Assembly: GCA_030527235.1 (NCBI GenBank)
Contig: JAUNBL010000001.1
Span: 10,294-74,293 of the forward strand
Source: Clostridia bacterium
Lineage (GTDB): Bacteria; Bacillota; Clostridia; UMGS1883
Direction of reading: 5' to 3'
Length of the DNA stretch: 64,000 nucleotides
Shown here: positions 6,531-24,396 of the stretch, one piece after another
Numbering within the stretch: position 1 is the first letter of the stretch
How the letters are laid out: every line of letters begins with the position of its first letter
The notes under the pieces: generated by a model
What the model saw: the letters and a program-made list of their open reading frames with translations, nothing else
Databases searched by the model: none
What the model was told of the DNA's origin: nothing
Position numbers and translations under genes: made by a program

Positions 6531-6535
6531 ATATA

Positions 6536-6561
6536 AAGAGCCCTTGCTACAGGGCTCTTTA
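6536..6561 (+). terminator. Hairpin after the tail gene (weak terminator or processing site)
   Basis: AAAGAGCCC-ttgctaca-GGGCTCTTT. Only a short T tract follows. Confidence 0.35.
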
Positions 6562-6580
6562 ATAATGGAGGTGATTTGAT

Positions 6581-8314: not shown

Positions 8315-8351
8315 GGTTATATCTTATAAATAAGAATACAAGGAGAGTAAT

Positions 8352-8525
8352 ATGAAGAACGAAATGATACAAAAACTTGGTGCGGTTATTAATGCACTAA
8401 ATAATGTTTATGTCAAAGGTGAACAGAACCTTGCTAACCTTAGCGGCAGCATTACTATATTAAAAGAAGTTGCTGAGCAACTTAATATTTACGAGGTTGA
8501 AGAAAAATCAACCAACAAAGAGTAG
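8352..8525 (+). CDS. Small phage protein (57 aa)
   Basis: Own translation gives MKNEMIQKLGAVINALNNVYVKGEQNLANLSGSITILKEVAEQLNIYEVEEKSTNKE. AAGGAGAG lies upstream. It is below the ORF-track cutoff and fills an otherwise empty gap. Confidence 0.5.
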   Translation: MKNEMIQKLGAVINALNNVYVKGEQNLANLSGSITILKEVAEQLNIYEVEEKSTNKE

Positions 8526-8544
8526 AAAGTAAAGAGGTGGTTTA

Positions 8545-10047
8545 ATGGCTTTTAACGGATGCTATTTCAGCTTTGACGGAATACCTTGTACAGAGTATGG
8601 TCTTATGCTATATGACATCGGTACAAAGAGTTCTGACACAACAACAGATTTATCTGTTAATACAGAAATAGTTGAAGATAGGATTGCACGAAGATACACG
8701 CCTTTACATTATGGAACAATAACCAATGAACCGCTTGAATTTACAATGACATTCGGTGCAGATATAAACGCAATTGATAAAGGTGAGTATCTGGACAGAT
8801 GGGATTTGGAAACGATAGCTCGATGGCTAACTGCGCACAATAAATATAAATGGCTTGAGATAACACAGCCTGATATGGAGATGTTTAGATATAAATGTTT
8901 TATCACTGACTTAAAGCATATTGATGTTGCAAATCTTCCTTGGGCTTTTAGCTGTAAAGTTATTTGCGACTCCCCGTTTGCATATCAGTATCCAGAAGTA
9001 TTCAGGTATGTTGTGAATGGCACAACAGAAGTTGAGCTATTAAATAAGAGTTCTTATCGTGGGTTTTATAAACCTAAGATGGTACTATTTTTACCAAGAG
9101 GCGGTTCGGTTGATGTTAGCTTGTTAGAAACTGCATTGACACACGGATATGACGATAAACTTCTTAGAGATATAGACCATTACCCATTATTTGTTTTAGA
9201 CCACGGCGGTGGGTATAACTATTTTTCACTTAAAGAAAGTACAACTAATATCAGGAAGACAATATATGCAAGCCTGCAAGAACAATCAATGAGTCTTGTT
9301 TTCAGTGCCGGTATGGCTCTTGTGGAAACTATGGGTTTAGAAGAACACAATATGACCTTATCGGTAAGCGGAGACATAACAAGGATAATGACGCTTACAA
9401 CACCAAACCTGTCTGCTAAATTAAAGAATCAAATAAAAGCTAATATGACAAATCTATGTGAACTCATAATGAATGCCACAGGAGTTCACTGGCTTGATGG
9501 GTACTTGCACGAATATGACGACAGACTACTTTCAGATATGTATGTAACATATCCGAATATGTCTCTTGTTTCAATGTGCGACAAGGTATATATGAAGTTC
9601 TCGTTTGAACCCGAAGGACACAATATGTCACTTGATGGTAGCGCACCAGACTTTGTAACGACATCAATTATAAAGGATGCGGTTAGGTCTGTAATGCAGT
9701 TAGACTCAGGAACTTCATTTGAATACGAGGTTGTAATAGGATGTAATCCTATGGATACATCATTAAATTCATCTGAGGTATCATTAAATGTTATTGCGTA
9801 TATGTATCCAGAGGCAATCGAGACGAGCTTCTCAAACAGAACGGTACGAGATATACACACCAAGAGTGCTCTTGCTGTTACATCACAGAGTAGGCTCAAC
9901 ACTTCTGTCACAGAAGAAATAGAGATGTATTATGGACTTGGACATTTCGATAGGAATTATCTATATTATTGGGATACATATACTATCGAAGATATGTCGG
10001 CAGAAATTACCGTTAGGTCGCAAGGCGGCTCTGTAGATAATAACTAA
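8545..10047 (+). CDS. Phage tail/baseplate-associated protein (Dit-like N-terminus?)
   Basis: 500 aa with an RBS (AGAGGTGG). The N-terminus MAFNGCYFSFDGIPCTEYGLMLYDIG resembles phage tail-family proteins. The assignment is weak. Confidence 0.45.
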   Translation: MAFNGCYFSFDGIPCTEYGLMLYDIGTKSSDTTTDLSVNTEIVEDRIARRYTPLHYGTITNEPLEFTMTFGADINAIDKGEYLDRWDLETIARWLTAHNKYKWLEITQPDMEMFRYKCFITDLKHIDVANLPWAFSCKVICDSPFAYQYPEVFRYVVNGTTEVELLNKSSYRGFYKPKMVLFLPRGGSVDVSLLETALTHGYDDKLLRDIDHYPLFVLDHGGGYNYFSLKESTTNIRKTIYASLQEQSMSLVFSAGMALVETMGLEEHNMTLSVSGDITRIMTLTTPNLSAKLKNQIKANMTNLCELIMNATGVHWLDGYLHEYDDRLLSDMYVTYPNMSLVSMCDKVYMKFSFEPEGHNMSLDGSAPDFVTTSIIKDAVRSVMQLDSGTSFEYEVVIGCNPMDTSLNSSEVSLNVIAYMYPEAIETSFSNRTVRDIHTKSALAVTSQSRLNTSVTEEIEMYYGLGHFDRNYLYYWDTYTIEDMSAEITVRSQGGSVDNN

Positions 10048-10068
10048 AAGAATTGGAGGAACAAATAA

Positions 10069-11586
10069 ATGAGTTATACACCAAACATAAATTTGATGCT
10101 TACTCCCGAAGATGATACCAGCACAACATTCAAGCAGTGGCGTACTGGTATGAACGGCGAGGATAGCGATTCTAACATGATGAAAATTGATGAAGCTGTC
10201 GGTGCTCTTGATGAACACTGCGATAGACTTCAGGCTAAAGTCGATACCGTATCGAGCAAGGTATTCGGCGAGTCCCCTCAGACTTGGGCAGATGTCCAAA
10301 CTATTGTTCGTAGCGGTGCAGCGTCTCAATATTTTGATGTTGGAGACCAGTTCATCGTTGAGAGATTAACAGGCGTAACAGCTTCTGTGGGAGAAAGTGA
10401 GGGCATATCTGCTGTGACCGTTGACTCAAACACATTTGTTGATGGTATGGGCGAGGTACACGCAGGTGATTATCTTTTCACATACGACGGCGTGTCTTGG
10501 AGAAATGAGGTTGGTGAAATAGTAAACATTGAAACGCTTGGTATTACATACACAGGCACGCCAACTGCCGGAGATAACATTACTGTTACAGAAGCCTCTA
10601 CACAATTAGCTTTCGATGTTATTGGCATTGACCATGACACTCCTGCTGACGCAAACCACACTCACAGTATGACATTACAACTCCACAACTTATGGTCAAG
10701 TACTATGACATATGATGCAGCCGAGGCTATGTTCGCAGTAGATGCAGAAACATATCCCGATGGTCTTCCCGCCGGAACTTATAACTTTACTTGGAATTAT
10801 GCGACCGGTAGTATGGTAAATGGTACCTATCAGTTTACTATTGAACAACCGATACCGATTGGCGGTCAGATTGTTATTGAAACAAACTCAAGCTCTACCG
10901 CCATCACCTCTTGTAAAATTAAAACATATGCAACTGCTGGTGCAACAAAAACTATCGAAACTAATATTGCAATTATAACGGGTACAGAAGGTACAAGTCT
11001 TGGCACGATATTAAGTACAACTTCTTCTGCGACAAATCTCAACTGTGCTCAGCGTATTATGTGGGGTTCAAACAACTGGAGTGAGTCCTCTCTTCGTCAG
11101 TGGTTAAATACAGATGCGGCAGCAAACTCTTGGTGGGAACCTAAGACTGTCTTTGATAGACCCGCAAACACTGATAGTGTTGGTTTCTTAAAAGATTTAG
11201 ACCCCGCATTCCTCGATGTTATTGGAGATGTGACAAAGACAACTCAATTGAGTGTTTCTGATGACTATGGTTTAGAGACATCTACTGAACGCTTCTTCTT
11301 ACTTTCAAGACCTGAAGTTTACGCGGGTACTGAAAGAAGTGCAGACGGAACAGATGGCACAGTATACGTATACTATGGCGCTGGCTATTCTGATTTGACC
11401 GCTCCGGGTACCGGTGCAGACTCAAATAGAATTAAATACAGAAATGGCAGTGCAACATATTGGTGGTTGCGTACTCCTCATTCTACCGTCGGTGGCCATG
11501 TTCGTAATGTCCACCCAACGGGCTCCTTGAACATCTACAATGCCAACAACAGTACCGGTGTGGCTCCGGCTTGCGTAATCGTGTAA
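10069..11586 (+). CDS. Tail fibre / receptor-binding protein, the DGR target (VR at the extreme C-terminus)
   Basis: 505 aa with a tail-fibre-like N-terminus, MSYTPNINLMLTPEDD..SN.MKIDEAV. The C-terminus ...YWWLRTPHSTVGGHVRNVHPTGSLNIYNANNSTGVAPACVIV contains the VR. Confidence 0.85.
   Translation: MSYTPNINLMLTPEDDTSTTFKQWRTGMNGEDSDSNMMKIDEAVGALDEHCDRLQAKVDTVSSKVFGESPQTWADVQTIVRSGAASQYFDVGDQFIVERLTGVTASVGESEGISAVTVDSNTFVDGMGEVHAGDYLFTYDGVSWRNEVGEIVNIETLGITYTGTPTAGDNITVTEASTQLAFDVIGIDHDTPADANHTHSMTLQLHNLWSSTMTYDAAEAMFAVDAETYPDGLPAGTYNFTWNYATGSMVNGTYQFTIEQPIPIGGQIVIETNSSSTAITSCKIKTYATAGATKTIETNIAIITGTEGTSLGTILSTTSSATNLNCAQRIMWGSNNWSESSLRQWLNTDAAANSWWEPKTVFDRPANTDSVGFLKDLDPAFLDVIGDVTKTTQLSVSDDYGLETSTERFFLLSRPEVYAGTERSADGTDGTVYVYYGAGYSDLTAPGTGADSNRIKYRNGSATYWWLRTPHSTVGGHVRNVHPTGSLNIYNANNSTGVAPACVIV
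11465..11570 (+). repeat. DGR variable repeat (VR)
   Basis: It aligns without gaps over 106 nt to 12235-12340. There are 14 mismatches, and at every one TR has A. The 3' end is the invariant GC-rich GGTGTGGCTCCGG. Confidence 0.9.
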
Positions 11587-11725
11587 TAATCCAGCCGACA
11601 GGGTGATTATTATAGATTATTTTACAATGGGTACACCCCTTATGGTTATGAGCGTAGGGAGCTGTTATGTAGGTGGTGTAGTCGCAGGTGTAAAACAATC
11701 ACAAAAATCATAGGAGGTATCAAAA

Positions 11726-12184
11726 ATGAGCGTACCAGAAGGTAAGAGAAAAATAGGCAAACTCACGATTGAGACTGAGGGTGAGAAGCTTTTGCAGTAT
11801 ATTATTGATGTTACAGTTAAATATTACCTACCTCCTACGCACGAAGACAACATATCGTCACAGAGTAAAATAGTTGAATATGCAAATGCTAAATGGTTTG
11901 CCGAATGTATGAGGTCTGAAATGTTATCGTGTCTTTCTAATATTCAAGCTGCAAATAAAATTGTAGTTCTTGACGAAGAAAGCTACCACGAAAGAAGGCT
12001 TTGTCAAACACAAGCAGAACGATGTGTTGAAAAGGTGTTAACTGCTTCTACACTTATGTATCGCAAAAAGCTAATTAAAAGCAAAAGGATTAAGTTTATA
12101 GGGCAACAGATTTATCATATAAAGCGTATGCTACAAAACTGGCGTAAATCTGATAAAGCCCGATATACAAACCGCGAGCAATAA
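11726..12184 (+). CDS. avd: DGR accessory variability determinant (Avd-like helical protein)
   Basis: A 152-aa basic helical protein lying between the target gene and TR. This is the canonical Avd position. The call rests on size, position and composition only. Confidence 0.65.
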   Translation: MSVPEGKRKIGKLTIETEGEKLLQYIIDVTVKYYLPPTHEDNISSQSKIVEYANAKWFAECMRSEMLSCLSNIQAANKIVVLDEESYHERRLCQTQAERCVEKVLTASTLMYRKKLIKSKRIKFIGQQIYHIKRMLQNWRKSDKARYTNREQ

Positions 12185-12234
12185 TATTTAGGGGTAGTCG
12201 TTGTAAGAAGTTCCGTGCTGTTTTGGGGTTCCCG

Positions 12235-12340
12235 GGTTGCGTACTCCTAATTCAACCAACGGTAACAATGTTCGTAATGTCAACCCAACGGGCAACTTGA
12301 ACAACAACAATGCCAACAACAGTAACGGTGTGGCTCCGGA
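12235..12340 (+). repeat. DGR template repeat (TR)
   Basis: Non-coding copy of the VR. In the VR frame it reads LRTPNSTNGNNVRNVNPTGNLNNNNANNSNGVAPD, which is rich in AAC/AAT codons. Confidence 0.9.
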
Positions 12341-12521
12341 TTGGGTGGAAAAGTAAGTAGTAGCACTATATGTGACGAAACCGAATACCCACGCAAGGAA
12401 TGACTATCCCTGCCGTTAAAGGTGAAACTGGTGCGTCGATGCAGTCTACTCAACCAACGGTAGTAGGTACTCGCTATACACGGCGCACAAACAAAAAAAT
12501 AACAATCGAAAGAGGTGCTTA

Positions 12522-13626
12522 ATGAACACTACAAGTGCACCTGCTGTTCGTGAAACAGCTTGTGACTTTGAAAGTCTATATAACGCTATGAATGTTTGCA
12601 AAGGAGATGTTATGTGGAAAGACAGCGTTGCTGGCTGGGTTAAGAACGGAATAATCAATTGTGCCAAGCTTGAGGAACAATTAAATACTGGCACATACTC
12701 AATAGACGAGTATTCACGATTTACGATATTTGAACCGAAAAAGCGCGATATTGTAAGTACTCGTTTCAAAGACAGGGTGTTTCAAAGAAGTCTTTGTGAT
12801 ACCTATCTAACAAAACAAATCACAAAATCATTTATATATGATAATGGTGCTTGTCTTGAAGACAAAGGGACGGAGTTTGCACGAAGAAGAATTATCGCAC
12901 ATATGCAAAAGTTCTACCGTAAACACGGTCGTAACGGGTATGTATTAAAGTGTGACATAACTAATTACTTTGGTTCTACTCCTCATAGCGTTGTTAAAGA
13001 TAAAGTGAAAATGTTATGTGATGATAAGTGGGCGTATTTAGAACTATGCAGAATCATCGATAGTTTTTGGAACGCCAGACAATCCAGATGTTGGAATGGG
13101 TTTGGGTTCGCAGGTGACACAACTGTGTCAGCTTGCAGTGTTAAACGATATCGATCACGGGCTAAAAGAGCGAAAGCGAATTAAACACTATGTTAGGTAT
13201 ATGGACGATTTAATACTTATTCACCAAGACAAAGAAGTATTGAAGGATTGTCTTAATTATATCAAAACCGAGATGGCTGATATGGGGTTAAAATTAAGTG
13301 AAAAGAAAACACAAATATTCCCTATCACTCAACCAATTCATTTCCTTGGATTTTCACTTCGTCTAACAGAGACAGGCAAAGTCGTTAAGAAAGTTCTGTC
13401 CAAGAAAGTATCGCACGAGCGTCGCAAATTAAAGCGTATGGTGGGTCTTGTTGAAAATGGGAAGATGACCCGCGAGAAGGTTGATAAGTGCTTTGAGTCT
13501 TGGTTGGCGCACGCCACGGCAGAGCCATCTCCTCAAAGGAAAGGAACACCTTTTCTTTGTAGGTCAGATGATTATTTCACTATAGAAAATATGAAACGAT
13601 TTTATAAAACGATATGGGAGGTTTAG
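12522..13626 (+). pseudogene. DGR reverse transcriptase, split by a +1 frameshift in a T5 run (13064-13068)
   Basis: The ORFs 12522-13184 and 13096-13626 overlap. The second frame is open from 13042 and reads ...GTPDNPDVGMGLGSQVTQLCQLAVLNDIDH...YVRYMDDLILI, containing the DGR-type GxxxSQ motif and YMDD. Removing one T fuses them as IIDSF-GTPDNPDVGMGLGSQ. Confidence 0.85.
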
Positions 13627-13627
13627 T

Positions 13628-13801
13628 ATGCAGTATTTATCACTTAAAGACCAGCTCTTAAAAGAGCGTCAAAAAAATGCAGCTCTTACTGCTGAAGCAG
13701 ATAAGAATACAGCAGATATAGATTACATCGCAATGATGTGTGATGTTGAACTTACCGTACCCGAAAACGAGGGTATGAATAACGAAACTGAGGAGGGTTA
13801 A
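13628..13801 (+). CDS. Small phage protein (57 aa)
   Basis: Own translation gives MQYLSLKDQLLKERQKNAALTAEADKNTADIDYIAMMCDVELTVPENEGMNNETEEG. It starts 2 nt after the RT stop and is below the ORF-track cutoff. Confidence 0.5.
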   Translation: MQYLSLKDQLLKERQKNAALTAEADKNTADIDYIAMMCDVELTVPENEGMNNETEEG

Positions 13802-13804
13802 TAA

Positions 13805-13954
13805 ATGGAACACGGTGCAAAGTTTTATAAGGTGAAAAACTACTATGACCGTGGTCTTTGGGATGAAACTCGTGTAGCTAATGCAGTTCTCAAAGGCTGG
13901 ATTACCGTAGATGAATACGAGGAAATCGTAGGCAAGAAATATGAAGAAGTATAA
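13805..13954 (+). CDS. XkdX-like small phage protein (49 aa)
   Basis: Own translation gives MEHGAKFYKVKNYYDRGLWDETRVANAVLKGWITVDEYEEIVGKKYEEV. The KGWIT..EY..I pattern matches XkdX-family proteins as I recall them. Confidence 0.6.
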   Translation: MEHGAKFYKVKNYYDRGLWDETRVANAVLKGWITVDEYEEIVGKKYEEV

Positions 13955-13968
13955 TAGGAGGAGATATA

Positions 13969-14187
13969 ATGGCAATTAGTGTTTATTATTACAAAGACGA
14001 GCCTACAGCTCCACACCGTACATTCTTATGTGATTCTGACGCAGATATAGATAATCTTCCAACACAAACGAAGAAGACTGCGGATTATCCCAACGGAACA
14101 CCTACCGGTTCTACTGCGTTGGTAGTGACATCTGATGGTGTTAGTGTGTGGATTTTGAATAACATAGGGAATTGGATAAAAATATAA
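13969..14187 (+). CDS. Phage protein, unknown function (72 aa)
   Basis: ORF with GGAGGAG upstream, co-oriented in the phage late operon. Confidence 0.5.
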   Translation: MAISVYYYKDEPTAPHRTFLCDSDADIDNLPTQTKKTADYPNGTPTGSTALVVTSDGVSVWILNNIGNWIKI

Positions 14188-14198
14188 GGAGGTAGCTT

Positions 14199-14996
14199 AT
14201 GATTGATTTTATTACATATGCGGCATCCGTTACAAAGGCTACCAAGAACGCGAAAAATTATACAGATAGCGTTATATCAATGCTGCCAAACGGTATCGTG
14301 TACAAAGGTGGTGTTAGTTATTTTTCAAGCCTTCCGTCAAATCCAGATATCGGAGATGCTTATATAATTAAATATACAGGGTCAGAAGGTACAAATCCTG
14401 ACGGCAGGGAGTATGTATGGGGCGAATATGACGGCACACCGCAATGGATTTTAATTTCGGGAGTATCAGATATAATAGATTCGAGCGGAGAATCAATAGT
14501 ATCAAACGGGATAGCGGTAATACCGGACGCTATGACAACGCTTCCGAGCGAACTCTTTGGAAAGACATTCAATACTGCCGAAAGTCTTATAGCCGCTGCA
14601 AATTCTGCGTTTAGTGCAGGACATATTAAAATGTCAAATGTGTACAGAGGCGGAATTAACACAAATACAATGCTGTTAAAAAATAACGGCGATTACTTTG
14701 TGGGGAATATCGAACTGTGGCTAAGCGTAGTTCCAAATACAAGCAACAGTGCTGTTTATATATTCGAGGCTATTTCAGTTACGGATGCGCCATATCTTTG
14801 GCAGTGTTATGCCTGTGCTGACGGAAGAAACACCGATTGGATAGTTTCACCCACACGAGCAGAACTTAAACTGCATACAGACAGCAATGTAACATCGGAA
14901 GAGGGAGCTCATAATTTGAGATATCATAACAATACTTTGGAATACTTTGACGGAACTGACTGGGTGGCTTTGTCTATTGCAAATTTATTTATTTAA
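14199..14996 (+). CDS. Phage protein, unknown function (265 aa; possibly fibre-associated)
   Basis: ORF with AAGGAGG upstream. It is the last gene before a strong terminator. Confidence 0.5.
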   Translation: MIDFITYAASVTKATKNAKNYTDSVISMLPNGIVYKGGVSYFSSLPSNPDIGDAYIIKYTGSEGTNPDGREYVWGEYDGTPQWILISGVSDIIDSSGESIVSNGIAVIPDAMTTLPSELFGKTFNTAESLIAAANSAFSAGHIKMSNVYRGGINTNTMLLKNNGDYFVGNIELWLSVVPNTSNSAVYIFEAISVTDAPYLWQCYACADGRNTDWIVSPTRAELKLHTDSNVTSEEGAHNLRYHNNTLEYFDGTDWVALSIANLFI

Positions 14997-15008
14997 TTAA
15001 TTAAATAT

Positions 15009-15037
15009 ACCGCCGCCATATTCGGGCGGCGGTTTTA
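15009..15037 (+). terminator. Rho-independent terminator of the tail/DGR operon
   Basis: ACCGCCGCC-atattcg-GGCGGCGGT followed by TTTT. Confidence 0.8.
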
Positions 15038-15055
15038 TGCTATGGAGGGATAGTT

Positions 15056-15397
15056 TTGAAAAACAAAAACAATAATCCCGTTTGTAAATTGCTAAATAAT
15101 ATCAAGAAAATGATTTGTGTGATATTAGAAAAGCGGGACAAAGAATATTCAAAAAGATTACTCACTCGAATCATAAATCACTCACTTTTTATGATGTGGG
15201 CATCGTATGCTCTTGCGTGGTTTGGGCGCACTGATATTGCAGAAACATTATCTAAAACAATTGTCACTTCGGTGATAGCGGTTGTGATTGGATATCTTAC
15301 TAAATCTGTTATCGAGAACATCAGTAAAAACACGACTACCTTTGGTAAAAATATCGAAATGGAACACAATATTAATAAAGATATGCGAGATTGTTAG
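15056..15397 (+). CDS. Putative holin / small membrane protein
   Basis: 113 aa, TTG start with GGAGGGA upstream. It has two hydrophobic segments (LFMMWASYALAWFG and VTSVIAVVIGYL) and sits at the head of the lysis cassette. Confidence 0.5.
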   Translation: MKNKNNNPVCKLLNNIKKMICVILEKRDKEYSKRLLTRIINHSLFMMWASYALAWFGRTDIAETLSKTIVTSVIAVVIGYLTKSVIENISKNTTTFGKNIEMEHNINKDMRDC

Positions 15398-15408
15398 GAG
15401 GTTATAAA

Positions 15409-15573
15409 ATGGATAACAAACCTGATGTATGGGCACAGGAAGCTGTAGAATGGGCAGTCGAGAACAAGGTTTTGTTTGGAGATGAGAACGGCAATTATAA
15501 GTTGCATGATACTTGTACGAGACAGGAAATGTTAGTGTTTCTTGACAGAGTATACAATCTGATTAAAGCCTGA
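15409..15573 (+). CDS. Free-standing cell-wall-binding (SLH-like) domain protein, a paralogue of the endolysin C-terminus
   Basis: ATG 15409 with TAGGAGG upstream. MDNKPDVWAQEAVEWAVENKVLFGDENGNYKLHDTCTRQEMLVFLDRVYNLIKA aligns with endolysin residues DNVPDAWAETAVQNAIDNKIIFGDDTGDLKLHKNCTRQEMLVFLYRFYKNII. Confidence 0.6.
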   Translation: MDNKPDVWAQEAVEWAVENKVLFGDENGNYKLHDTCTRQEMLVFLDRVYNLIKA

Positions 15574-15607
15574 TTCTCTGTATTTTTTTAAAGGAGGATG
15601 TGTTAGT

Positions 15608-16516
15608 ATGACAGCACAAAAAATAATTAATATGGCAGCATCTCAGATTGGAACAAAGGAGTCCCCTGCAAATTCGAACAACGTTAAGTATAATACCGAC
15701 TATTATGGTCGGGCAGTAAGTGGCTCAAGTTACCCTTGGTGTTGTGCATTTATATGGTGGATATTTAATGCTTGCGGCGCTTCCGAGCTTTTTTATGGTG
15801 GAAAAAAAACCGCATATTGTCCTACTGTCGAAAGCTATTACAAGGCAAATGGAATGTGGTTTAATTCCGGCAAGCCGGGGGATTTGGTTTTATTTGACTT
15901 TACCGGCAAGGGAATTTCCGGACATATTGGAATTGTAGAATCCGCTAATTCCGATGGTTCATATACAACAATTGAAGGTAACACCGGTTCCGGAAATGAT
16001 GCCAATGGCGGAACAGTAATGAGAAGGACTCGTTATAAATCTTCTATTCGTGGATTTGCGAGACCTAACTATGCGAGTGATGTTATTCAGTTTACTGAGA
16101 CATCTGTAAACCTCATAGGTACAATAAATGCAAGCGTTTTAAATATAAGAAAACAACCGTCAACGGCATCTGAAATTATCGGCAAACACAGCAATGGAGA
16201 TGTTGTTAATATAACGGCAAAAACAGATAATGGTTGGTACAGAGTTGATTATCCCAATATTGGCACAGGTTATCTGTATGCCGATTATGTATCAGTGGCA
16301 GAGCCGACACCCGAACCTGTTGTGCAACAACCTTATACTCCACCGACCGAAGAAAAAGATAACGTTCCCGACGCTTGGGCGGAAACTGCCGTTCAGAATG
16401 CTATTGATAATAAAATCATTTTCGGTGATGATACCGGGGATTTAAAATTACATAAAAATTGTACAAGACAGGAGATGCTTGTATTCTTATATAGGTTTTA
16501 TAAAAACATAATTTAG
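15608..16516 (+). CDS. Endolysin: CHAP amidase/peptidase + SH3-like + SLH-like wall-binding domain
   Basis: 302 aa. The CHAP Cys is in YPWCCAFIWW and the His in GHIGIV. The middle segment NASVLNIRKQPS...GWYRV is SH3b-like. The C-terminus is an SLH-like module. Confidence 0.85.
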   Translation: MTAQKIINMAASQIGTKESPANSNNVKYNTDYYGRAVSGSSYPWCCAFIWWIFNACGASELFYGGKKTAYCPTVESYYKANGMWFNSGKPGDLVLFDFTGKGISGHIGIVESANSDGSYTTIEGNTGSGNDANGGTVMRRTRYKSSIRGFARPNYASDVIQFTETSVNLIGTINASVLNIRKQPSTASEIIGKHSNGDVVNITAKTDNGWYRVDYPNIGTGYLYADYVSVAEPTPEPVVQQPYTPPTEEKDNVPDAWAETAVQNAIDNKIIFGDDTGDLKLHKNCTRQEMLVFLYRFYKNII

Positions 16517-16531
16517 TTAGGTGGTGCATAT

Positions 16532-16927
16532 ATGAACAACATTGTAAACTTTATTTCTGCATATTGGATTGAGATTGTAAGTTGCATACTGATAGTTATT
16601 GGGACAATTACCGGAATTGTAAAATTCCTTTCACAACCTAAAGCTAAACAGATTGAACAAATCAAGGCTTGGTTGCTCGGTGCAGTAACCCTTGCCGAAG
16701 CCGAATTTGGCAGCGGCACAGGAAAAATAAAGCTTTCTGTTGTCTACGACGCTTTTGTTGAAAAGTTTCCGTGGATTGCGAAATTTCTTTCATTTACAAT
16801 TTTCGGCAAATATGTTGACGAAGCTTTGGTAGAAATGAGAAAGCTGTTATCGACAAATGAGGCTGTTGCTGCGATTGTTGAATCTCCGGACAGCATTAAA
16901 ACTGAAATCAACACTGAGGAGGGTTAA
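16532..16927 (+). CDS. Holin-like protein (LL-H-type?)
   Basis: 131 aa with an N-terminal TM segment (IEIVSCILIVIGTITGIV), lying next to the endolysin. Confidence 0.5.
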   Translation: MNNIVNFISAYWIEIVSCILIVIGTITGIVKFLSQPKAKQIEQIKAWLLGAVTLAEAEFGSGTGKIKLSVVYDAFVEKFPWIAKFLSFTIFGKYVDEALVEMRKLLSTNEAVAAIVESPDSIKTEINTEEG

Positions 16928-16930
16928 TCA

Positions 16931-17317
16931 ATGACTGAGAATGAAAAAGTATTACTGGAATGCGAGCAAAGGTCTAAGTCTAACTCCCACAGAATTGACG
17001 GTCTCGAAAAAGATATGAAGGAAATGAAAGAAGATAATAAAGCTATTTACAAAATTGCCACTTCGGTTGAAGTAATGGCAGAAAAGCTTGGAAATATTGA
17101 AGAAAAAGTTGACGAGACTAACCGCAAGGTTGACGAAACAGCTAAAGCTCAAAGAATTTCCGAGGATAGATTTTTGCAAAGAGTTGCAGATATAGAAGGT
17201 CAACCTGCAATTCAGCTTCAAAAGAATGTAAACGAGATTAAAGTTAAAGTGATTACAGCGATTATAACCTTTCTTGTAACAGGTGCGCTTGGCGCTTTGA
17301 TTTATTTTGCGAAATAA
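16931..17317 (+). CDS. XhlA-like coiled-coil protein with a C-terminal TM anchor
   Basis: 128 aa. MTENEKVLLECEQRSKSNSHRIDGLEKDMKEMKE... plus the C-terminal TM VITAIITFLVTGALGALIYF. This architecture is typical of XhlA in PBSX-type lysis cassettes. Confidence 0.55.
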   Translation: MTENEKVLLECEQRSKSNSHRIDGLEKDMKEMKEDNKAIYKIATSVEVMAEKLGNIEEKVDETNRKVDETAKAQRISEDRFLQRVADIEGQPAIQLQKNVNEIKVKVITAIITFLVTGALGALIYFAK

Positions 17318-17979: not shown

Positions 17980-18008
17980 TTGACAAATAATAGGGATGGT
18001 GGTACAAT
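17980..18008 (+). promoter_or_regulatory. Promoter of the TA pair
   Basis: TTGACA (17980-17985), 17-nt spacer, TACAAT (18003-18008). Confidence 0.55.
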
Positions 18009-18058
18009 ATATGTGTGAAGATTTAAGTAATCATAATAACTCGAAAGGAGATGTTGAT

Positions 18059-18226
18059 ATGCCGACAGCAGTAAATAAAATAGACATTGCATTAGCCGAA
18101 TTGTTAAGGAAAAATAAGGACAAAATCAAATCAATAACTCCTTCCAATCCTCCCATTTCTAAAGATGATGAATGGCGAGATGAAGATGAGTGGGATGATT
18201 TATATAAGGAGTTACAGGACAAATGA
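18059..18226 (+). CDS. Putative antitoxin (55 aa, acidic C-terminus)
   Basis: ATG 18059 with AAAGGAG 8 nt upstream: MPTAVNKIDIALAELLRKNKDK...DEWRDEDEWDDLYKELQDK. Its stop overlaps the toxin start (ATGA). Confidence 0.5.
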   Translation: MPTAVNKIDIALAELLRKNKDKIKSITPSNPPISKDDEWRDEDEWDDLYKELQDK

Positions 18227-18551
18227 GAGTTTGGGAGCTATGGTTTGCCGACTTTCCGTATGAAGAAGATAATACAATTGTTAAAAGCAGACCTGTTATC
18301 ATTCTCAACGTAGAGCCTTTAGAAGTATTGTCGGTTAAGGTTACATCACAGCAGTCGCGTAATAGTGATAAATATGATATGCCAATCGTTCATTGGCAGT
18401 ATGCGGGGTTAAAAAAGCCGTCGGTTGCTCGTATATCCAAAACAATGTTTCTGGACAAAAATAATTTCACCAAAAAATAGGAACTCCTCATGACGATGAC
18501 AAGATTGCAGTTCTTACGAAGTACACCGAATACTTAAAGGAAATTACATAA
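18223..18551 (+). pseudogene. MazF/PemK-like toxin interrupted by a frameshift at an A6 run
   Basis: MRVWELWFADFPYEEDNTIVKSRPVIILN...VKVTSQ...GLKKPSVARISKTMFLDKNNFTKK stops at 18478-18480. The -1 frame from A18477 continues IGTPHDDDKIAVLTKYTEYLKEIT, which restores a typical toxin of about 109 aa. Confidence 0.65.
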
Positions 18552-18676: not shown

Positions 18677-19579
18677 TTGCCAACATTCAAGAACACGCCA
18701 AGAGGAACTTGGTTCTGCAAGTTTTACTACACCGATTGGACTGGCGAACGAAAGCAAAAGAAAAAAGAAGGCTTTGCTACCAAACGCGAAGCGCAAGAAT
18801 GGGAACGAGACTTCTTAAATAGGTGCAGTATCGAATCGGACATTACGTTTGAAAACTTCTGCATTAAGTATATGGAACATTGTAAGGCTCGCCTGAAGCC
18901 CACAACATACGAGGGTAAAAAGAATATGATAGAGACCAAATTACTGCCGTATTTTAAGCATATGAAGCTTAAAGATATAAAGGCAAGTACATTACGCACT
19001 TGGCAAGATAAATTGATTACAAGCCCAAATAACTACGCTGAGACGTATCTTAAAACTATTAATAATCAGATGTCCGCTATCTTAAATTTTGCTGTTAACA
19101 ATGACTACATTGGTTCAAACCCCATGCACAAGTGTGGCAGTATGGGAAAGAAACACGCAGAAGGCTTGCAGTTTTGGACTGTAGACGAATATAAGTTGTT
19201 CTATGAAGCTATTAAGGATAAGCCAATGTCCGCCGCTATCTTTCCATTGTTCTTTTACAGCGGTATGCGTGAGGGTGAAGTATTAGCCGTAACACTAAAT
19301 GACTTTGATTTTGAAAACAATACTGTTAATGTTAATAAGAGTTATGCCAAACACAACGGCGAGGATTTGATACAAACACCTAAAACTCCTAAGAGTAAGA
19401 GGATTATCACTTTACCTGAGCAGATAATGGAATTGATAAAAAAATATGCAGGCTCAATCTACGATTATCAGCCAACCGACAGATTGTTTGCCTGCACAAA
19501 ATATTATTTAGCTCACGAGATGAAGCGCGGATGCGAGAAGTCAGGCGTGAAGAAGATAAGAATCCATGACCTCAGACAC
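18677..19579 (+). pseudogene. Phage tyrosine integrase, 3' end replaced by the ICE insertion
   Basis: The probable start is TTG 18677, with AAAGGAGAG upstream. The N-terminus LPTFKNTPRGTWFCKFYYTDWTGERKQKKKEGFATKREAQEWE is arm-binding type. Integrase-like sequence runs through IRIHDLRH (ending at 19579). Downstream of that, the frame is antisense to the serine recombinase gene. Confidence 0.75.
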
Positions 19580-19609
19580 CCGTATGTCAAGCTAAAACTA
19601 AAAATTTTA

Positions 19610-21151
19610 TCAGCCTATTTCAGCCGCACTTTCGGCGCAAAAGTCCTTGATTTTCCACTCGATTTCAAGCCTATTATCGGGATATACACACACCTTTTCG
19701 ATAAGCATATCGGCAAGTGCCTGTGTTAAGGCGGTTTCTTTTTTTACGGCTTTCGCCGTTTGAATAATTTTTGCCCTGTTTTCAGTTTCAAGCTGTGAGC
19801 GTTCCTCCGATTTGCGGAATTTATCGTATTGAATACGGTAATTCTCGGTTTTTGTGTCATATTCCTGTTTTAAGCATTTATACTCATCAAGTGTAATTTC
19901 TTCTGTTAAAAGCTGCTCATACAAGAGTTGTTTTTTCTTTTGGCAAGCCGTTATCTGCTTTTCAATATCCGCAAGCTGCTCTGTTTTTATCTGTGCGGTA
20001 TCAACCTTTGAAACATCATCAATATTCAATATGCTTTCGGCTTGTTTTGAGATTATATCAAAAATTGCTTGGTTTAACGCACCTTCCGTAATTTCCGATT
20101 TATAGCAAGGCTCCGTTTCGTCATTCCTTGTATAGCTGCACCGATATATCGGTATTTTTTTCGGCACATAATCCATTGCGTGCTTGCAGCAGCCGCACTC
20201 AACCTTTCCACGAAGCGGATAGCTCCGCTGTTTTTTATTCGGCTGCTTAAATGTTCGCCGCACCGCATTAGCCTTTTCAAACAATTCCTCCGAAACAATC
20301 ACATCGTGGTGGTGCGGTATCTTTATCCACTCGCTTTCATCACGCTTGACCATTTTTGTGCTGCCCACATCTTGTACCCTCTGCTTCAGCATCACAAACA
20401 TCCCCATATATTGTTCGTTGACTATAATTCGGTTTATGGTGGAAATGCTCCAATATTTGCAGTTTGGAAAACGAGAGCCGTAGTTTCCTTTAATGCCCTT
20501 GTACTGTGCAGGAGTAGGGATATTTTTATCGAACAACAGCTTTGATATATATGCGGCAGACTTGCCATCGGCGGTAAGCTCGAATATCATTTTAACCGTT
20601 TCGGCGGCTTTCTCATCTATAATCTGCTCGCCGTTATCTCCGGCTTTATAGCCGTATGTATAATTCCCCGATTTATATTCGCCACGCCGCATTTTTGTAT
20701 ATTTGGCACTCTTTGTTTTAACCGATAAATCACGGCTGTAATACTCGTTTACGAGATATTTCACCGCAACGGCAATGCCACCCGTATCGCCCTTATGTTC
20801 GTCACTGTCATAGTTATCGCTGACCGATATAAACCGCACACCGAACAGAGGAAATATTTGTTGTGTAAAATACCCAACCTCTATACTGTTCCTCCCGAAA
20901 CGGGAGAAGTCCTTTACCAAAATGCAATTCACCTTATAAGCTTTAACATCATTCAAAAGCTGCTGAACGGCGGGGCGTTCAAGATTAGTCCCAGAATAGC
21001 CGTTGTCAACATATTCGATAATTTCAACATTATCGCCGAGAGCTTCCGCATATTTACGGAGCAAAAGCCTTTGTGATTCAATGCTCATACTCTCAACACG
21101 CTTATCTTCAACAGACAAACGCAGATATATGGCTATAATGTATCTATCCAT
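19610..21151 (-). CDS. Large serine recombinase (3rd of triplet)
   Basis: 513 aa. The N-terminal resolvase domain reads IAIYLRLSVEDK...SIESQR...YVDNGYSGTNLERPA...ILVKDFSRFGR. A recombinase and zinc-ribbon region and a coiled coil follow. Confidence 0.9.
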   Translation of the reverse strand: MDRYIIAIYLRLSVEDKRVESMSIESQRLLLRKYAEALGDNVEIIEYVDNGYSGTNLERPAVQQLLNDVKAYKVNCILVKDFSRFGRNSIEVGYFTQQIFPLFGVRFISVSDNYDSDEHKGDTGGIAVAVKYLVNEYYSRDLSVKTKSAKYTKMRRGEYKSGNYTYGYKAGDNGEQIIDEKAAETVKMIFELTADGKSAAYISKLLFDKNIPTPAQYKGIKGNYGSRFPNCKYWSISTINRIIVNEQYMGMFVMLKQRVQDVGSTKMVKRDESEWIKIPHHHDVIVSEELFEKANAVRRTFKQPNKKQRSYPLRGKVECGCCKHAMDYVPKKIPIYRCSYTRNDETEPCYKSEITEGALNQAIFDIISKQAESILNIDDVSKVDTAQIKTEQLADIEKQITACQKKKQLLYEQLLTEEITLDEYKCLKQEYDTKTENYRIQYDKFRKSEERSQLETENRAKIIQTAKAVKKETALTQALADMLIEKVCVYPDNRLEIEWKIKDFCAESAAEIG

Positions 21152-22787
21152 TTGCTATCGCCTCGCTTTCAAATTCGTTATCAAAACTATATGTTATCTC
21201 AACTCGTTTGCCTTTGTAAATATCTATTCTCGAAACCAGCTTGTCTATAAGCTCTTTGGTTAAAGTGTTGTTTTCAGCAATATCCGAAACGGCGTTCGAC
21301 AGGTCGCAATATCGGTTATAGCTTTTTTCAAGCTTCAAGCGGCGGTTTTCAACCTCGGTTATCTTTTTCATTGTATCGGAGATTTTATCGCCGTAGCTTT
21401 TACGCATTTCTTGATATTCCTCCTGTGTTATAATGCCGTTTACAAGATTTTCATATAAGCTGTTCAAAAAATTCCGATTTTTTGATATGTAAGCTCGTAA
21501 GTCCTTTAATTCCGCCTGTTGAGCTTCTATTTCTTTCTTATCATTCAGCGAATAGAATATCAGATTTTTTCTGTCGGCAAGTACAGACGTTTGCGATTTT
21601 ATTGCGGTTATAACCACATTGAGCAAATCTTTTTCGAGAATACTGCCGTTATCGCATCCGTCACGCTTATATCTTGTATTTGTAAGACAGTTTATATTAT
21701 ATGCAAACCCTGTTTTTACTCTTGAAAATCTTGAACGATGTAACGCTCTGCCGCACTCGCCGCAGAAAATTTTACCTTTCCATATATTTTCGGTGTAGGG
21801 TATTACGGTTAGCTTGCTGTGCTTATTTTTTAACTGCTCCATACGCTCCTGTGCTTTATCAAACATATCCTGTGAAATAATAGCCTCGTGCGTGTTCGGA
21901 ACGACTATCCATTCATCTTTGTCAACAGCGGTCTGCTTTTTAGCCAAGCTGTCACTTCTGCCCTGAACGAGCTTGCCTGTATATATTTCGTGTGTTAAGA
22001 TTTGCCGAACGGTCATAGTCTGCCATAATCCGCTGCCGATACTCTTTTTTGAGGTTATATATCCCTTTTGATAGCCGTATGCACCCGGTGTTAGGATTTG
22101 CTGTTCGTTAAGCTGCAAGCATATCTCATTTGTTGACATACCACCGTTAAAAAGCTCAAATATCAGCTTGACAACGGGTGCGGTTTCGGGATTTACGATT
22201 AGCTTATGACAGTCATTCGGATCTTTCAGATAACCGTATTTCGGTCTTGCACTCACATATTGTCCGTCACGCATTGCCTGTCGTGCCTGTGTTTTGATTT
22301 TCTTTCCGATGTCCAAAGCGTAGGCTTCATTTATAATATTTTTGATATAAAGGAGCATTTTATCACCGTTTGAGGGGGTATCCGTATCAAAGTTATCGTT
22401 TACGGCAATAAACCGCACCTTCTTTTCGGGAAAGTAGGTGTCTATATAAAAGCCTGTGTCAATACTGTTTCTGCCGAGCCTTGACAAGTCCTTTACGATT
22501 ACGCAGTCTATCTTGCCGCTTTCAATATCCTCAATCATATGCTGAAATTCAGGGCGGTGAAAGCTTGTGCCTGTCGCTCCGTTGTCGATATATACTCCTG
22601 CCAAACGCATATTTCCGTTTTGTGCGATATAATCATCGAGTATCATCTTTTGATTTTCGATGGAATTACCCTTGTTGTGGCTGTCCTCAACCGATAATCT
22701 TATATACTGTGCCGTTTTTATGTATATAGGCATATTTTCCGGCTTTGTCTGTGCAGCAGTGATATTTTTTCTGCTTTTTCTTGCCAT
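21144..22787 (-). CDS. Large serine recombinase (2nd of triplet)
   Basis: 547 aa: YIRLSVEDS...SIENQK...YIDNGATGTSFHRPE...VIVKDLSRLGR. It overlaps the next gene by 8 nt. Confidence 0.9.
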   Translation of the reverse strand: MARKSRKNITAAQTKPENMPIYIKTAQYIRLSVEDSHNKGNSIENQKMILDDYIAQNGNMRLAGVYIDNGATGTSFHRPEFQHMIEDIESGKIDCVIVKDLSRLGRNSIDTGFYIDTYFPEKKVRFIAVNDNFDTDTPSNGDKMLLYIKNIINEAYALDIGKKIKTQARQAMRDGQYVSARPKYGYLKDPNDCHKLIVNPETAPVVKLIFELFNGGMSTNEICLQLNEQQILTPGAYGYQKGYITSKKSIGSGLWQTMTVRQILTHEIYTGKLVQGRSDSLAKKQTAVDKDEWIVVPNTHEAIISQDMFDKAQERMEQLKNKHSKLTVIPYTENIWKGKIFCGECGRALHRSRFSRVKTGFAYNINCLTNTRYKRDGCDNGSILEKDLLNVVITAIKSQTSVLADRKNLIFYSLNDKKEIEAQQAELKDLRAYISKNRNFLNSLYENLVNGIITQEEYQEMRKSYGDKISDTMKKITEVENRRLKLEKSYNRYCDLSNAVSDIAENNTLTKELIDKLVSRIDIYKGKRVEITYSFDNEFESEAIANG

Positions 22788-22788
22788 A

Positions 22789-24396
22789 TCAAACCACCTC
22801 CCGATACTCGCTTAATGCAGCTAATGTCTGTTCGTATTCGTCTTTGAAATTAAATGCTATCTGTATGTGCGTTTTATCATAAATATGGATGCACTCTATA
22901 AGGCGGATAACGATGTTGCGGTCAATTTTATCAATATTTTCAAAGGCTTTGAAGCGTTCTATCCATTGCAGCTTTTTCGAGGTGTTGTTTCTGCACTCGT
23001 CAAGCTCGGTTTCAAGCTGTTTTAATGCGTCCTCCAACCGTTTCTTGTCTTTGGAGTAGGAGTTGTTAAGCGTTTTGTAATCCTCTTTATTCAGAATACC
23101 GGAAATGTAGTTTTCATAAAGGGTTGATTTGTATTCACTTGTTTTGTCAAGCTGTTTTTGTACCTCGCCGATTTGCACCGATATTTTATTGCACATATCC
23201 TTGTTTATTGCATTGTTGTTGATGCCGCCTATTAAAGCGTTCAGCGAAGCAACATTTCTTATGTGTCCCTTAATGCTGTCCGTAACACAGTTTACAAGGT
23301 CGGTTTCTTTTATCATATTACCGCCTGTGCAGCCGTTTTTCTTTCCGGTGGGGCAATAATAGTAGAAGTATTTTTCGCCGTTATGTGTAACGGTTTTGCG
23401 TGTCATACGATTTCCGCAGCAGCCGCAGATTAAAATTCCCGAAAACAAATGCAGTTCATTCTTTTTCGGTGATGTTCTTGTGTCGATACGCATAATTTTC
23501 TGCACAAGCTCAAAATCTTGTCTGCCGATTATCGCTTCGTGTGCGTTTTCGGTTACAAACATCTCATCGGCGTTGCGTTTTACATACTCCTTAACCTTGT
23601 AATTCGGCTTGCCGCATTTGCCTTGTATCAGCTTGCCCGTATAGATTTCGTCTTTGAGAATACGAATTACGGTTGTTGCCGACCATTTTGAATTTTCCTT
23701 ATCGCAGTAGCCGCCTGTGGGGAGTGAGATGTTGTTGTCCTTTTTATATTCCCTCGGCGATAGAACCGCAAGTCGGTTCAGCTCATTTGCGATTCTCTCC
23801 GCACTGTAACCGTCTGTCCGCATTTTGAATATATCCTTTACCACCTGTGCGGCATATTCATCAATTACAAGCTGATTTTTATTATCATCAGCTTTTTTGT
23901 AACCGTAAACGGGAACGGCTCCGACATAATCGCCGTTTTTCCTTTTGATATTGAGTGCCGTGCGTACCTTTACGGAAATATCACGGCAGTATTCATCATT
24001 CATTACACCCTTAAAGGATACGGAAATATCTCCCGTAACGGCTTCCTTTGCGGTGTCTATATTATCGTTTATGGCGATAAAGCGAACACCGAGAGCAGGG
24101 AAAACTCGCCGAAGATATGTAAAGGTTTCGTTGTACTCTCTGCCGAGCCTTGATAAGTCTTTCACGATTATACAGTTGATTTTTCCGCTTTTGATGTCCT
24201 CAAGCATTGCCTTAAATGCGGGCCGATCAAAAACGATTCCCGAATAACCGTCATCTACCTGTTCATTAACGATTTTGATGTCGGGGTTTCGTTTGACAAA
24301 CTCATCAATGTATTTTCTTTGGTTTGCTATGCTGTCGCTTTCGTTTGCTCTGTCGCTTGTGTAGGATAAGCGAAGATATTTTGTAGCGTTATACAT
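22789..24396 (-). CDS. Large serine recombinase (1st of triplet)
   Basis: 535 aa: YLRLSYTSD...SIANQR...DDGYSGIVFDRPA...IIVKDLSRLGR. Confidence 0.9.
   Translation of the reverse strand: MYNATKYLRLSYTSDRANESDSIANQRKYIDEFVKRNPDIKIVNEQVDDGYSGIVFDRPAFKAMLEDIKSGKINCIIVKDLSRLGREYNETFTYLRRVFPALGVRFIAINDNIDTAKEAVTGDISVSFKGVMNDEYCRDISVKVRTALNIKRKNGDYVGAVPVYGYKKADDNKNQLVIDEYAAQVVKDIFKMRTDGYSAERIANELNRLAVLSPREYKKDNNISLPTGGYCDKENSKWSATTVIRILKDEIYTGKLIQGKCGKPNYKVKEYVKRNADEMFVTENAHEAIIGRQDFELVQKIMRIDTRTSPKKNELHLFSGILICGCCGNRMTRKTVTHNGEKYFYYYCPTGKKNGCTGGNMIKETDLVNCVTDSIKGHIRNVASLNALIGGINNNAINKDMCNKISVQIGEVQKQLDKTSEYKSTLYENYISGILNKEDYKTLNNSYSKDKKRLEDALKQLETELDECRNNTSKKLQWIERFKAFENIDKIDRNIVIRLIECIHIYDKTHIQIAFNFKDEYEQTLAALSEYREVV

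Follow-up and report, generated by a model that had tools for sequence, protein, structure and literature searches.

We analysed a 64,000-nucleotide stretch (the window) of contig JAUNBL010000001.1 from a Clostridia bacterium, in which the tyrosine integrase gene of a prophage is interrupted by a second mobile element. We conclude, with a probability of about 0.9, that the interrupting DNA is an integrative and conjugative element (ICE) which is 77,963 bp long and belongs to the 'triplet of serine integrases' type, that it was integrated by conservative site-specific recombination at a CA dinucleotide in the integrase gene of a prophage which itself is integrated at guaA, and that such an insertion is the normal behaviour of this ICE family. 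Indeed, comparison of related elements indicates that the family targets the DNA of the catalytic box of tyrosine recombinase genes, because diverse tyrosine recombinase genes are cut at the same profile position and their C-terminal halves are found at the other ICE end; attB is DNA that codes for H-x-[LFI]-R-H-[ST], and insertion is always in one orientation. An earlier note on this DNA had proposed a conjugative element nested in the prophage integrase gene. The present analysis supports that proposal and, by sequence comparison, extends the single nested insertion to a target rule for an ICE lineage, rather than an oddity of the source genome. The window corresponds to C16:10294-74293, where C16 is the contig; positions without a prefix are those of the window. 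The source genome is a 2.09-Mb metagenome-assembled genome (MAG) of 100 contigs with 82% completeness.

The two halves of the integrase gene lie 77,963 bp apart

The N-terminal part of the integrase gene occupies positions 18677 to 19578 on the plus strand (300 codons followed by CA), and its product comprises the arm-binding and SAM-like domains, together with the catalytic domain as far as the Arg of H-D-L-R. The open reading frame (ORF) starts with TTG at 18677, with an AAGGAG ribosome-binding site ahead of it, and Pfam recognises Arm-DNA-bind_4, Phage_int_SAM_3 and a partial PF00589 domain (profile positions 4-134 of 172). The last integrase residues before the break are ...KKIRIHDLR, with the Arg codon at 19574-19576, and these are followed by the CA (19577-19578) of the next His codon. 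The stop codon of LSR1, a large serine recombinase (LSR) gene on the minus strand, lies at 19610-19612, which is 31 nt past position 19579. The earlier note had described just this arrangement, with an integrase recognisable from its N-terminus to IRIHDLRH and the LSR stop at 19610, and both observations are confirmed.

Beyond the junction, the integrase frame remains open for 49 further codons (19579-19729), in sequence that is unrelated and runs antisense to the LSR1 3′ end. Gene callers therefore report an 'integrase' of 350-369 aa that appears complete although its tail is foreign, and public protein sets contain this fusion (P0001 cluster, 5 members).

A PF00589 scan of the whole genome located the missing C-terminal piece (profile positions 134-170) at C16:107833-107946, on the same contig and the same strand. 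The complete C-terminal half spans C16:107833-107991, outside the window; it reads HSHASLLIELGFQPLLVSERLGHENIETTLQTYSHLYPNKQREVADKLRSIV up to the stop codon and contains LGH and YSHLY. The far flank thus continues the integrase ORF in frame, with LGH and the tyrosine of Y.H, when the check that the note had proposed is carried out. The distance that separates the halves is 77,963 bp; the note had placed the displacement of the second His and the catalytic Tyr at more than 44 kb. Joining C16:28970-29871 to 107835-107991 yields an intact ORF of 352 aa, in which PF00589 matches from profile position 4 to 170 with 81.8 bits, compared to 42.5 bits for the truncated gene, and only once the halves are joined is the complete R...HxxR...H...Y catalytic domain of the target integrase obtained. 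The joined integrase is colinear with uninterrupted 352-aa phage orthologues (up to 83% identity). The possibility that orthologous integrases naturally end near HDLRH is not borne out, since the intact 352-aa relatives read IRIHDLRHSHASLLIELGF... past the box. Because its last His and its tyrosine nucleophile are displaced by 78 kb, the split integrase must, as judged from its domains, be inactive, with the DNA-binding domains and both catalytic arginines kept.

The same integrase-ICE junction occurs in four other assemblies (L076-L079), in which the sequence is ∼92% identical to window positions 19050-22700 and divergent upstream of 19050. This divergence indicates that the integrase genes are mosaic, with differing N-terminal halves on a common catalytic-domain segment.

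The element ends share only the dinucleotide CA

Comparison of attL with attR places the crossover at a CA dinucleotide (19577-19578; TG on the recombinase strand), with which the codon for the second His of H-D-L-R-H begins. The attL site is AGA-CA-CCCGTATG (AGA-CA-CCCG) and the attR site is CCATAGGGG-CA-TTCGCACG (GGGG-CA-TTCG, with CA at C16:107833-4). CA is the only sequence that attL and attR have in common, with no longer target duplication, and likewise in the pairs of sites from other genomes. The ICE ends are C16:29872 and C16:107834 (the latter equivalent to window position 97541), which gives the length of 77,963 bp.

The left end of the ICE, which constitutes one arm of attP (19579-19609, CCCGTATGTCAAGCTAAAACTAAAAATTTTATC), is nearly invariant in 15 other genome loci, and a 23-mer from it is matched exactly in 29 metagenome contigs and 1 IMG/VR contig. 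The reconstructed attP, ...TATACCATAGGGG-CA-CCCGTATGTCAAGC..., is nearly invariant across the ICE family. Its arms form an imperfect inverted repeat around CA, with matches at 7 of the first 8 positions and at 17 of all 36. Such a repeat is usual for the attP of a serine integrase, so that the sites described here show the two features expected of LSR att sites, a shared 2-nt crossover and this form of attP.

The integration module at the left end consists of three LSR genes on the minus strand: LSR1, the external one (19610-21151, 513 aa); LSR2, in the middle (21144-22787, 547 aa), which overlaps LSR1 by 8 nt and whose product is ∼31% identical to LSR1 and LSR3; and LSR3, the internal one (22789-24396, 535 aa). 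By Pfam, all three have Resolvase, Recombinase and zinc-ribbon (Zn_ribbon_recom) domains, and DUF4368 is absent from LSR1, LSR2 and LSR3. The genes are in tandem and co-oriented, and the order of the triplet is kept in relatives.

From what is established for LSRs, we infer that one or more of the three would synapse attP with attB, and that 2-nt staggered cuts at CA/TG would be followed by strand exchange, with the non-palindromic dinucleotide setting the orientation of insertion. Excision, presumably with a directionality factor, would restore the integrase exactly. The predicted products are a restored integrase, ...GACCTCAGA-CA-TTCGCACGC, and a circular attP, ...CCATAGGGG-CA-CCCGTATGTC. 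CA is invariant wherever the box is present because His is encoded only by CAY, and the Arg, Leu and His codons of the box contribute further fixed bases.

Related ICEs interrupt diverse integrase genes at the same codon

We read 46 junctions of related ICEs besides that in the window, from genomes, metagenomes and one IMG/VR contig. Site statistics are based on 46 junctions, with our own included and the IMG/VR junction left out, which comprise 38 distinct 24-nt flanks. LSR1 homologues with 44-99% identity are located at the same kind of junction. At 15 genome loci (other MAGs and one isolate), where the LSR1 homologues are 45-98% identical, we find the same element end, ...TTAGCTTGACATACGGG-TG, while the flanks beyond this conserved end all differ; read on the opposite strand, they encode x-H-x-[LFI]-R-(H). 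Among the loci, L022 is from Otoolea muris DSM 111138, a possible cultured carrier. Pfam identifies 8 of 10 flank ORFs at the genome loci as tyrosine recombinases, each of which ends at PF00589 position 133, and two more are recognised as tyrosine recombinases by tblastn. Similar results are obtained from metagenomes, in which the exact 23-mer of the element end gave 30 junctions in 29 contigs: 29 of the 30 read H-x-x-R-(H), and all 20 of the 20 flank ORFs of at least 120 aa match PF00589. One junction (L050) is without the His. The IMG/VR contig, which is the one match to the left-end 23-mer in that database, has a junction that reads IRLHDLR(H) and an LSR triplet that is 44-50% identical; a scan of IMG/VR with a right-end 25-mer gave no match.

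The flanks are alike in the motif they encode. Both His and Arg are encoded by 35 of the 38 distinct flanks, in one frame and one orientation, and the information content resides at codon positions 1 and 2 (C-12 in 37/38, A-11 in 36/38, T-5 in 35/38 and G-2 in 38/38), with the wobble positions free. Of the 32 flank ORFs tested by Pfam, 29 belong to tyrosine recombinases, and in every one of these the cut falls at a single profile position; the targeted integrases are mutually 19-86% identical.

The right end of the ICE (...TATACCATAGGGG-CA) could be located in 9 of the 14 other genomes, and in 7 of the 8 readable cases the DNA after it reads on in frame as H-[ST]-x-[AT]-[ST]...LGH...Y.H. The flank pairs of three other genomes, when joined, give full PF00589 domains. 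A natural empty site was found for one of the related elements: the joined flanks from genome G002 align unbroken to a phage contig (L004) with 98.3% identity over 1,265 bp. A search of 60 relatives with the joined 300-nt flank revealed no empty site; it returned a split copy in G059 (apparently the same as G002) and a partial match in G040. The ICEs differ in size (about 30, about 67 and 78 kb).

Several observations count against so general a rule. The junction sample rests on the exact 23-mer and on homology to LSR1, and it represents one ICE lineage, not all triplet elements. A tyrosine recombinase gene is unverified at the flanks of L008/L031, L011, L013, L014 and L016. At L008/L031, a site that resembles the motif, there is clearly no intact integrase, which shows that insertion also occurs at secondary sites of this kind. 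The source genome itself has three further tyrosine recombinase genes with H-x-[LF]-R-H boxes, all unoccupied, and therefore the box alone does not predict use. Moreover, the apparent conservation of attB is necessarily due in part to constraint on the encoded protein and not to recombinase contacts.

Some junctions point to repeated nesting. In metagenome contig L063, two ICE left ends (at 3587 and 8334) lie 4.7 kb apart and adjoin two different H-x-L-R-(H) flanks, an arrangement that suggests insertion in tandem or of one element within another. In genome G010, two ICE right ends lie beside two different integrase C-terminal parts (L029 and L038). A different kind of interruption is seen in ICE relatives in which the external LSR gene is itself split after residue ∼57 (...YSGTNF / ERPAVQQLL...), as in L023:3131-3301 with L017:∼5001 (contig URAN01000009.1), and also in L041 and L045. 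The external LSR gene is split by ∼43 kb of DNA, in which a further large serine recombinase gene lies on the opposite strand, and the same break is found in a different contig, L045. These splits may reflect a second element family that targets the conserved ERP region of serine recombinase genes.

Alternative explanations of the junctions

The alternative that survives best, although we consider it unlikely, is that the insertion is a regulated switch of the developmental type, as for A118 in comK or skin in sigK. If so, the ICE would excise on a signal and re-arm the integrase of its host element, and the two elements would be functionally coupled, with the integrase gene more than a neutral landing site. 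Excision after a conservative serine-recombinase insertion would restore the ORF exactly, and coupling has been proposed for serine-recombinase integrative and mobilizable elements (IMEs) inside ICE conjugation genes (PMC5357655). However, the target elements are very diverse, which speaks against co-adaptation with any one host element, and the host prophage in the window looks defective.

We regard as very improbable the idea that the LSRs are low-specificity serine transposases like TndX/TnpX, which enter integrase genes by chance or through a short dinucleotide preference. Under the operational definition of Durrant et al. 2022 (PMC10083194), an LSR cluster that is found in many clusters of target genes would qualify as multi-targeting, and a few non-integrase sites are in use (L008/L031). 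If targeting were of this kind, we would not expect H-x-x-R-(H) to be encoded by 35 of 38 distinct flanks in a single frame and orientation, or 29 of 32 Pfam-tested flank ORFs to be tyrosine recombinases cut at one profile position; furthermore, the LSRs lack DUF4368, the marker of the multi-targeting clade (PMC10083194). Non-specific transposition was rejected on these grounds.

Two further explanations can be set aside almost entirely. The truncated integrase might be a fixed, decayed gene carried at the ICE end, given that an integrase fragment always lies beside the recombinase triplet, but the fragments are only 19-86% identical to each other, whereas the ICE end is nearly invariant up to CA, matching C-terminal fragments lie at the other element end 30-78 kb off, uninterrupted alleles exist in phage contigs, and the seamless alignment to the empty site and the diversity of the flanks refute a fragment that is a component of the ICE. 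Nor, despite the fragmented and incomplete state of the source MAG, do we believe that a short stretch common to the ICE and the prophage led an assembler to join them, since a single 155-kb contig contains both junctions, which agree to the exact base, five other independent assemblies have the same attL (SRR24915838 at 100% over 5.1 kb and four more at ∼92%), and analogous junctions occur at the 46 other places, which include the closed MAG chromosome CP091729.1.

Comparison with known serine-recombinase elements

Site-specific insertion by a set of three serine integrases is known from streptococcal ICEs of the Tn1806 / ICESp1108 type, which target mutT, hsdM and traG (Ambroset et al. 2016, PMC4701971), and a triplet ICE has also been found in the snf2 gene of another ICE (Yi et al. 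2026, PMC12942858). The ICE in the window resembles these elements in three respects. First, three tandem, co-oriented LSR paralogues lie beside one element end and all face the junction, as in the modules of Ambroset et al. 2016. Second, the end repeats are very short (2-8 bp in the streptococcal elements and the 2-bp CA here), and a coding gene is disrupted site-specifically. Third, the targets can be genes of other mobile elements (traG and snf2 of ICEs in the streptococcal cases), which results in nested elements. In addition, the combination of RepA_N with a giant SNF2/methylase protein is like that of the Tn5252 superfamily. The differences lie in the target and the host. A tyrosine integrase gene is not among the reported targets of the streptococcal triplet ICEs, and here the target is the catalytic motif of a whole enzyme superfamily, so that unrelated genes, dozens of them, are used by one lineage. 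Its hosts are gut Clostridia that are uncultured, and the likeness to the streptococcal elements described here is one of module architecture.

Other elements share parts of this behaviour. Serine-integrase IMEs target the ICE genes maff2, traG and snf2 (Coluzzi et al. 2017, PMC5357655), and thus also home into conserved genes of other elements, which they probably disable until excision. Those elements are small and mobilisable, with one recombinase and conjugation genes as targets, in contrast to the large and predicted self-transmissible element here, whose target is a recombination gene. The classical gene-interrupting elements, A118 in comK, SPbeta in spsM, skin in sigK and gin in gerE (PMC5595907), are likewise inserted conservatively in an ORF, and their precise excision reconstitutes the gene, but each uses one host gene and excises in connection with host development, while the ICE family uses many different mobile-element genes. 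The DUF4368 LSRs (TndX/TnpX clade) are multi-targeting, with degenerate AT-rich targets (Durrant et al. 2022, PMC10083194). They resemble the present lineage in that one recombinase lineage occupies many different target genes; unlike them, our LSRs have no DUF4368, and target one protein-coding motif in one frame and one orientation, which places them outside that multi-targeting clade.

We found no report in the literature of a serine-recombinase element that targets tyrosine integrase genes (sources included PMC4701971, PMC5357655, PMC12942858, PMC10083194, PMC6814731 and 10.1101/114819), although this does not prove that none exists. Among the targets that stand out in the LSR survey of Durrant et al. 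are a Mg-chelatase-like gene, a prolyl isomerase and competence genes, and tyrosine recombinases go unmentioned in its text and in the supplements consulted (PMC10083194). A survey of prophages noted the octamer H-D-L-R-H-T-F-A as the best conserved of integrase motifs (10.1101/114819).

Possible consequences of targeting the catalytic box

These observations give one gut-Clostridia ICE lineage, in a large and poorly studied group, a precise target rule that consists of attP, the CA crossover, the orientation and an attB logo from 38 sites. Such a rule would be an unusual answer to the host-range problem of site-specific integration, in which no single host gene is needed. The ICE instead uses the codons that are best conserved in the most common family of mobile-element genes, a family which is dispensable to the cell and is present in almost every genome. 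The adaptive reason for this choice is probably that it offers a landing site in nearly every recipient, at no loss to the host, wherever other mobile elements live; immobilisation of the resident element would be at least a side effect.

The insertion would also represent a new way in which mobile elements conflict with, or depend on, each other, in that the resident integrase loses its tyrosine nucleophile, and resident prophages, ICEs and IMEs should be unable to excise until the ICE leaves. We offer more tentatively, at a little less than even odds, a broader proposal: that a widespread gut-Clostridia ICE lineage has evolved to use the DNA of the universal H-x-L-R-H box as its attB, such that any prophage, ICE or IME integrase gene could serve as a landing pad and the competitor would be reversibly disarmed. 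Together with the ERP-region splits, this would point to a general strategy in which elements home into each other's recombinase active-site codons, giving rise to Russian-doll nests. In practical terms, many 'truncated integrase' pseudogenes beside serine recombinases in Clostridia MAGs are likely to be attL sites of such elements, and a serine recombinase system with tolerance for many synonymous variants of one coding motif may be of interest in the engineering of integrases.

Gene content of the ICE

The part of the ICE within the window spans 19579 to 64000 and encodes surface proteins (as cargo), an IS110 transposase and regulators, together with an NlpC/P60 hydrolase, a VirB4-like ATPase and a methylase. 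The earlier note had assigned almost every gene from the junction to the window end to a conjugative element. This holds for membership of the element but not for conjugation functions, since the region from 24 to 56 kb is mostly cargo, and conjugation genes start at ∼56.9 kb, with the majority beyond the window. The cargo includes surface proteins of the SLH, copper-amine-oxidase-N and Listeria-Bacteroides-repeat types, the IS110 transposase, LuxR-type regulators and a solute-binding protein. The window contains about one conjugation block, with, on the minus strand, a cell-wall hydrolase (NlpC/P60 / CHAP, 56885-59278), which is typical of Gram-positive conjugation modules, and a VirB4-like conjugation ATPase (59841-62186; Pfam TraG P-loop, DUF87 and AAA_10).

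Beyond the window, we find a type IV coupling protein of the VirD4 type (T4SS-DNA_transf/TraG-D_C; C16:76386-78275), a MobA/VirD2 relaxase with DUF3801 (C16:87901-89926) and, at the right end of the ICE, a RepA_N/DUF6017 initiator (C16:106555-107571), as well as a VirB6-like protein (TrbL/VirB6-like), a 2875-aa SNF2/Eco57I-methylase protein, ParB and ParA. With a relaxase, a type IV coupling protein and a VirB4-type ATPase on one integrated element that has defined ends and its own integration module, the insert is, as predicted from gene content, an integrative and conjugative element. The source genome has one copy of it. Accessory genes include a ToxN-type toxin of a type III toxin-antitoxin system (C16:75293-75778, which is L001:1293-1778), and we also noted a HipA-like kinase (L001:17097-18005), a group II intron reverse transcriptase (L001:8024-9877) and the IS110 transposase (window 39035-40198).

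The host prophage

The contig is ordered as bacterial DNA, the prophage attL, 29.3 kb of phage DNA, the N-terminal part of the integrase gene, the 78-kb ICE, the C-terminal part of the integrase gene, and attR with guaA. The 3′ end of guaA lies just right of the integrase stop codon. A 10-bp core, ATTCCCACTC, is present at C16:579-588 and at C16:108097-108106, where it forms the last guaA codons, and an arm-type repeat, AGTACGCTTTTAGTACGC, is found at both prophage ends and in phage attP regions. The 578 bp to the left of the prophage attL encode no second integrase of a tandem element. Phage structural and lysis genes are thus bounded by att repeats at a bacterial gene, as in a temperate prophage. 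Intact orthologous integrases lie behind the same block of diversity-generating retroelement (DGR) and lysis genes in phage contigs of 41-97 kb, and are followed there by attP and then by early genes on the minus strand.

The prophage proper (C16:579-108106 minus the ICE) is 29,565 bp long, and PHROGs recognised no terminase, portal or major capsid gene among its ORFs of at least 250 aa. This suggests that the prophage is probably defective, or else that its virion genes are too divergent for recognition. The claim in the note that the ICE has locked the prophage in place is therefore upheld in structural terms, while its biological weight is uncertain in a prophage of this kind. The elements targeted elsewhere could not be classified in this way: the 85 ORFs that neighbour other targeted integrases, compared with Pfam, are mostly regulators of the Cro/CI helix-turn-helix type and unrelated genes, which are too unspecific to separate prophages, ICEs and IMEs.

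Based on PHROGs, the late region of the prophage (3381-17317, plus strand) encodes tail and tail-fibre proteins, the DGR (Avd and reverse transcriptase), an endolysin and holin-like proteins. Just upstream of the integrase gene lies a PemK/MazF-like toxin gene (18223-18480, plus strand), which is preceded by the gene for a 76-aa partner at 17996-18226. The DGR occupies 11726-13626, with Avd at 11726-12184. Its reverse transcriptase, a single protein of 367-378 aa in relatives, is divided here between two ORFs that overlap (12522-13184 and 13096-13626), as a result of a frameshift or a sequencing error.

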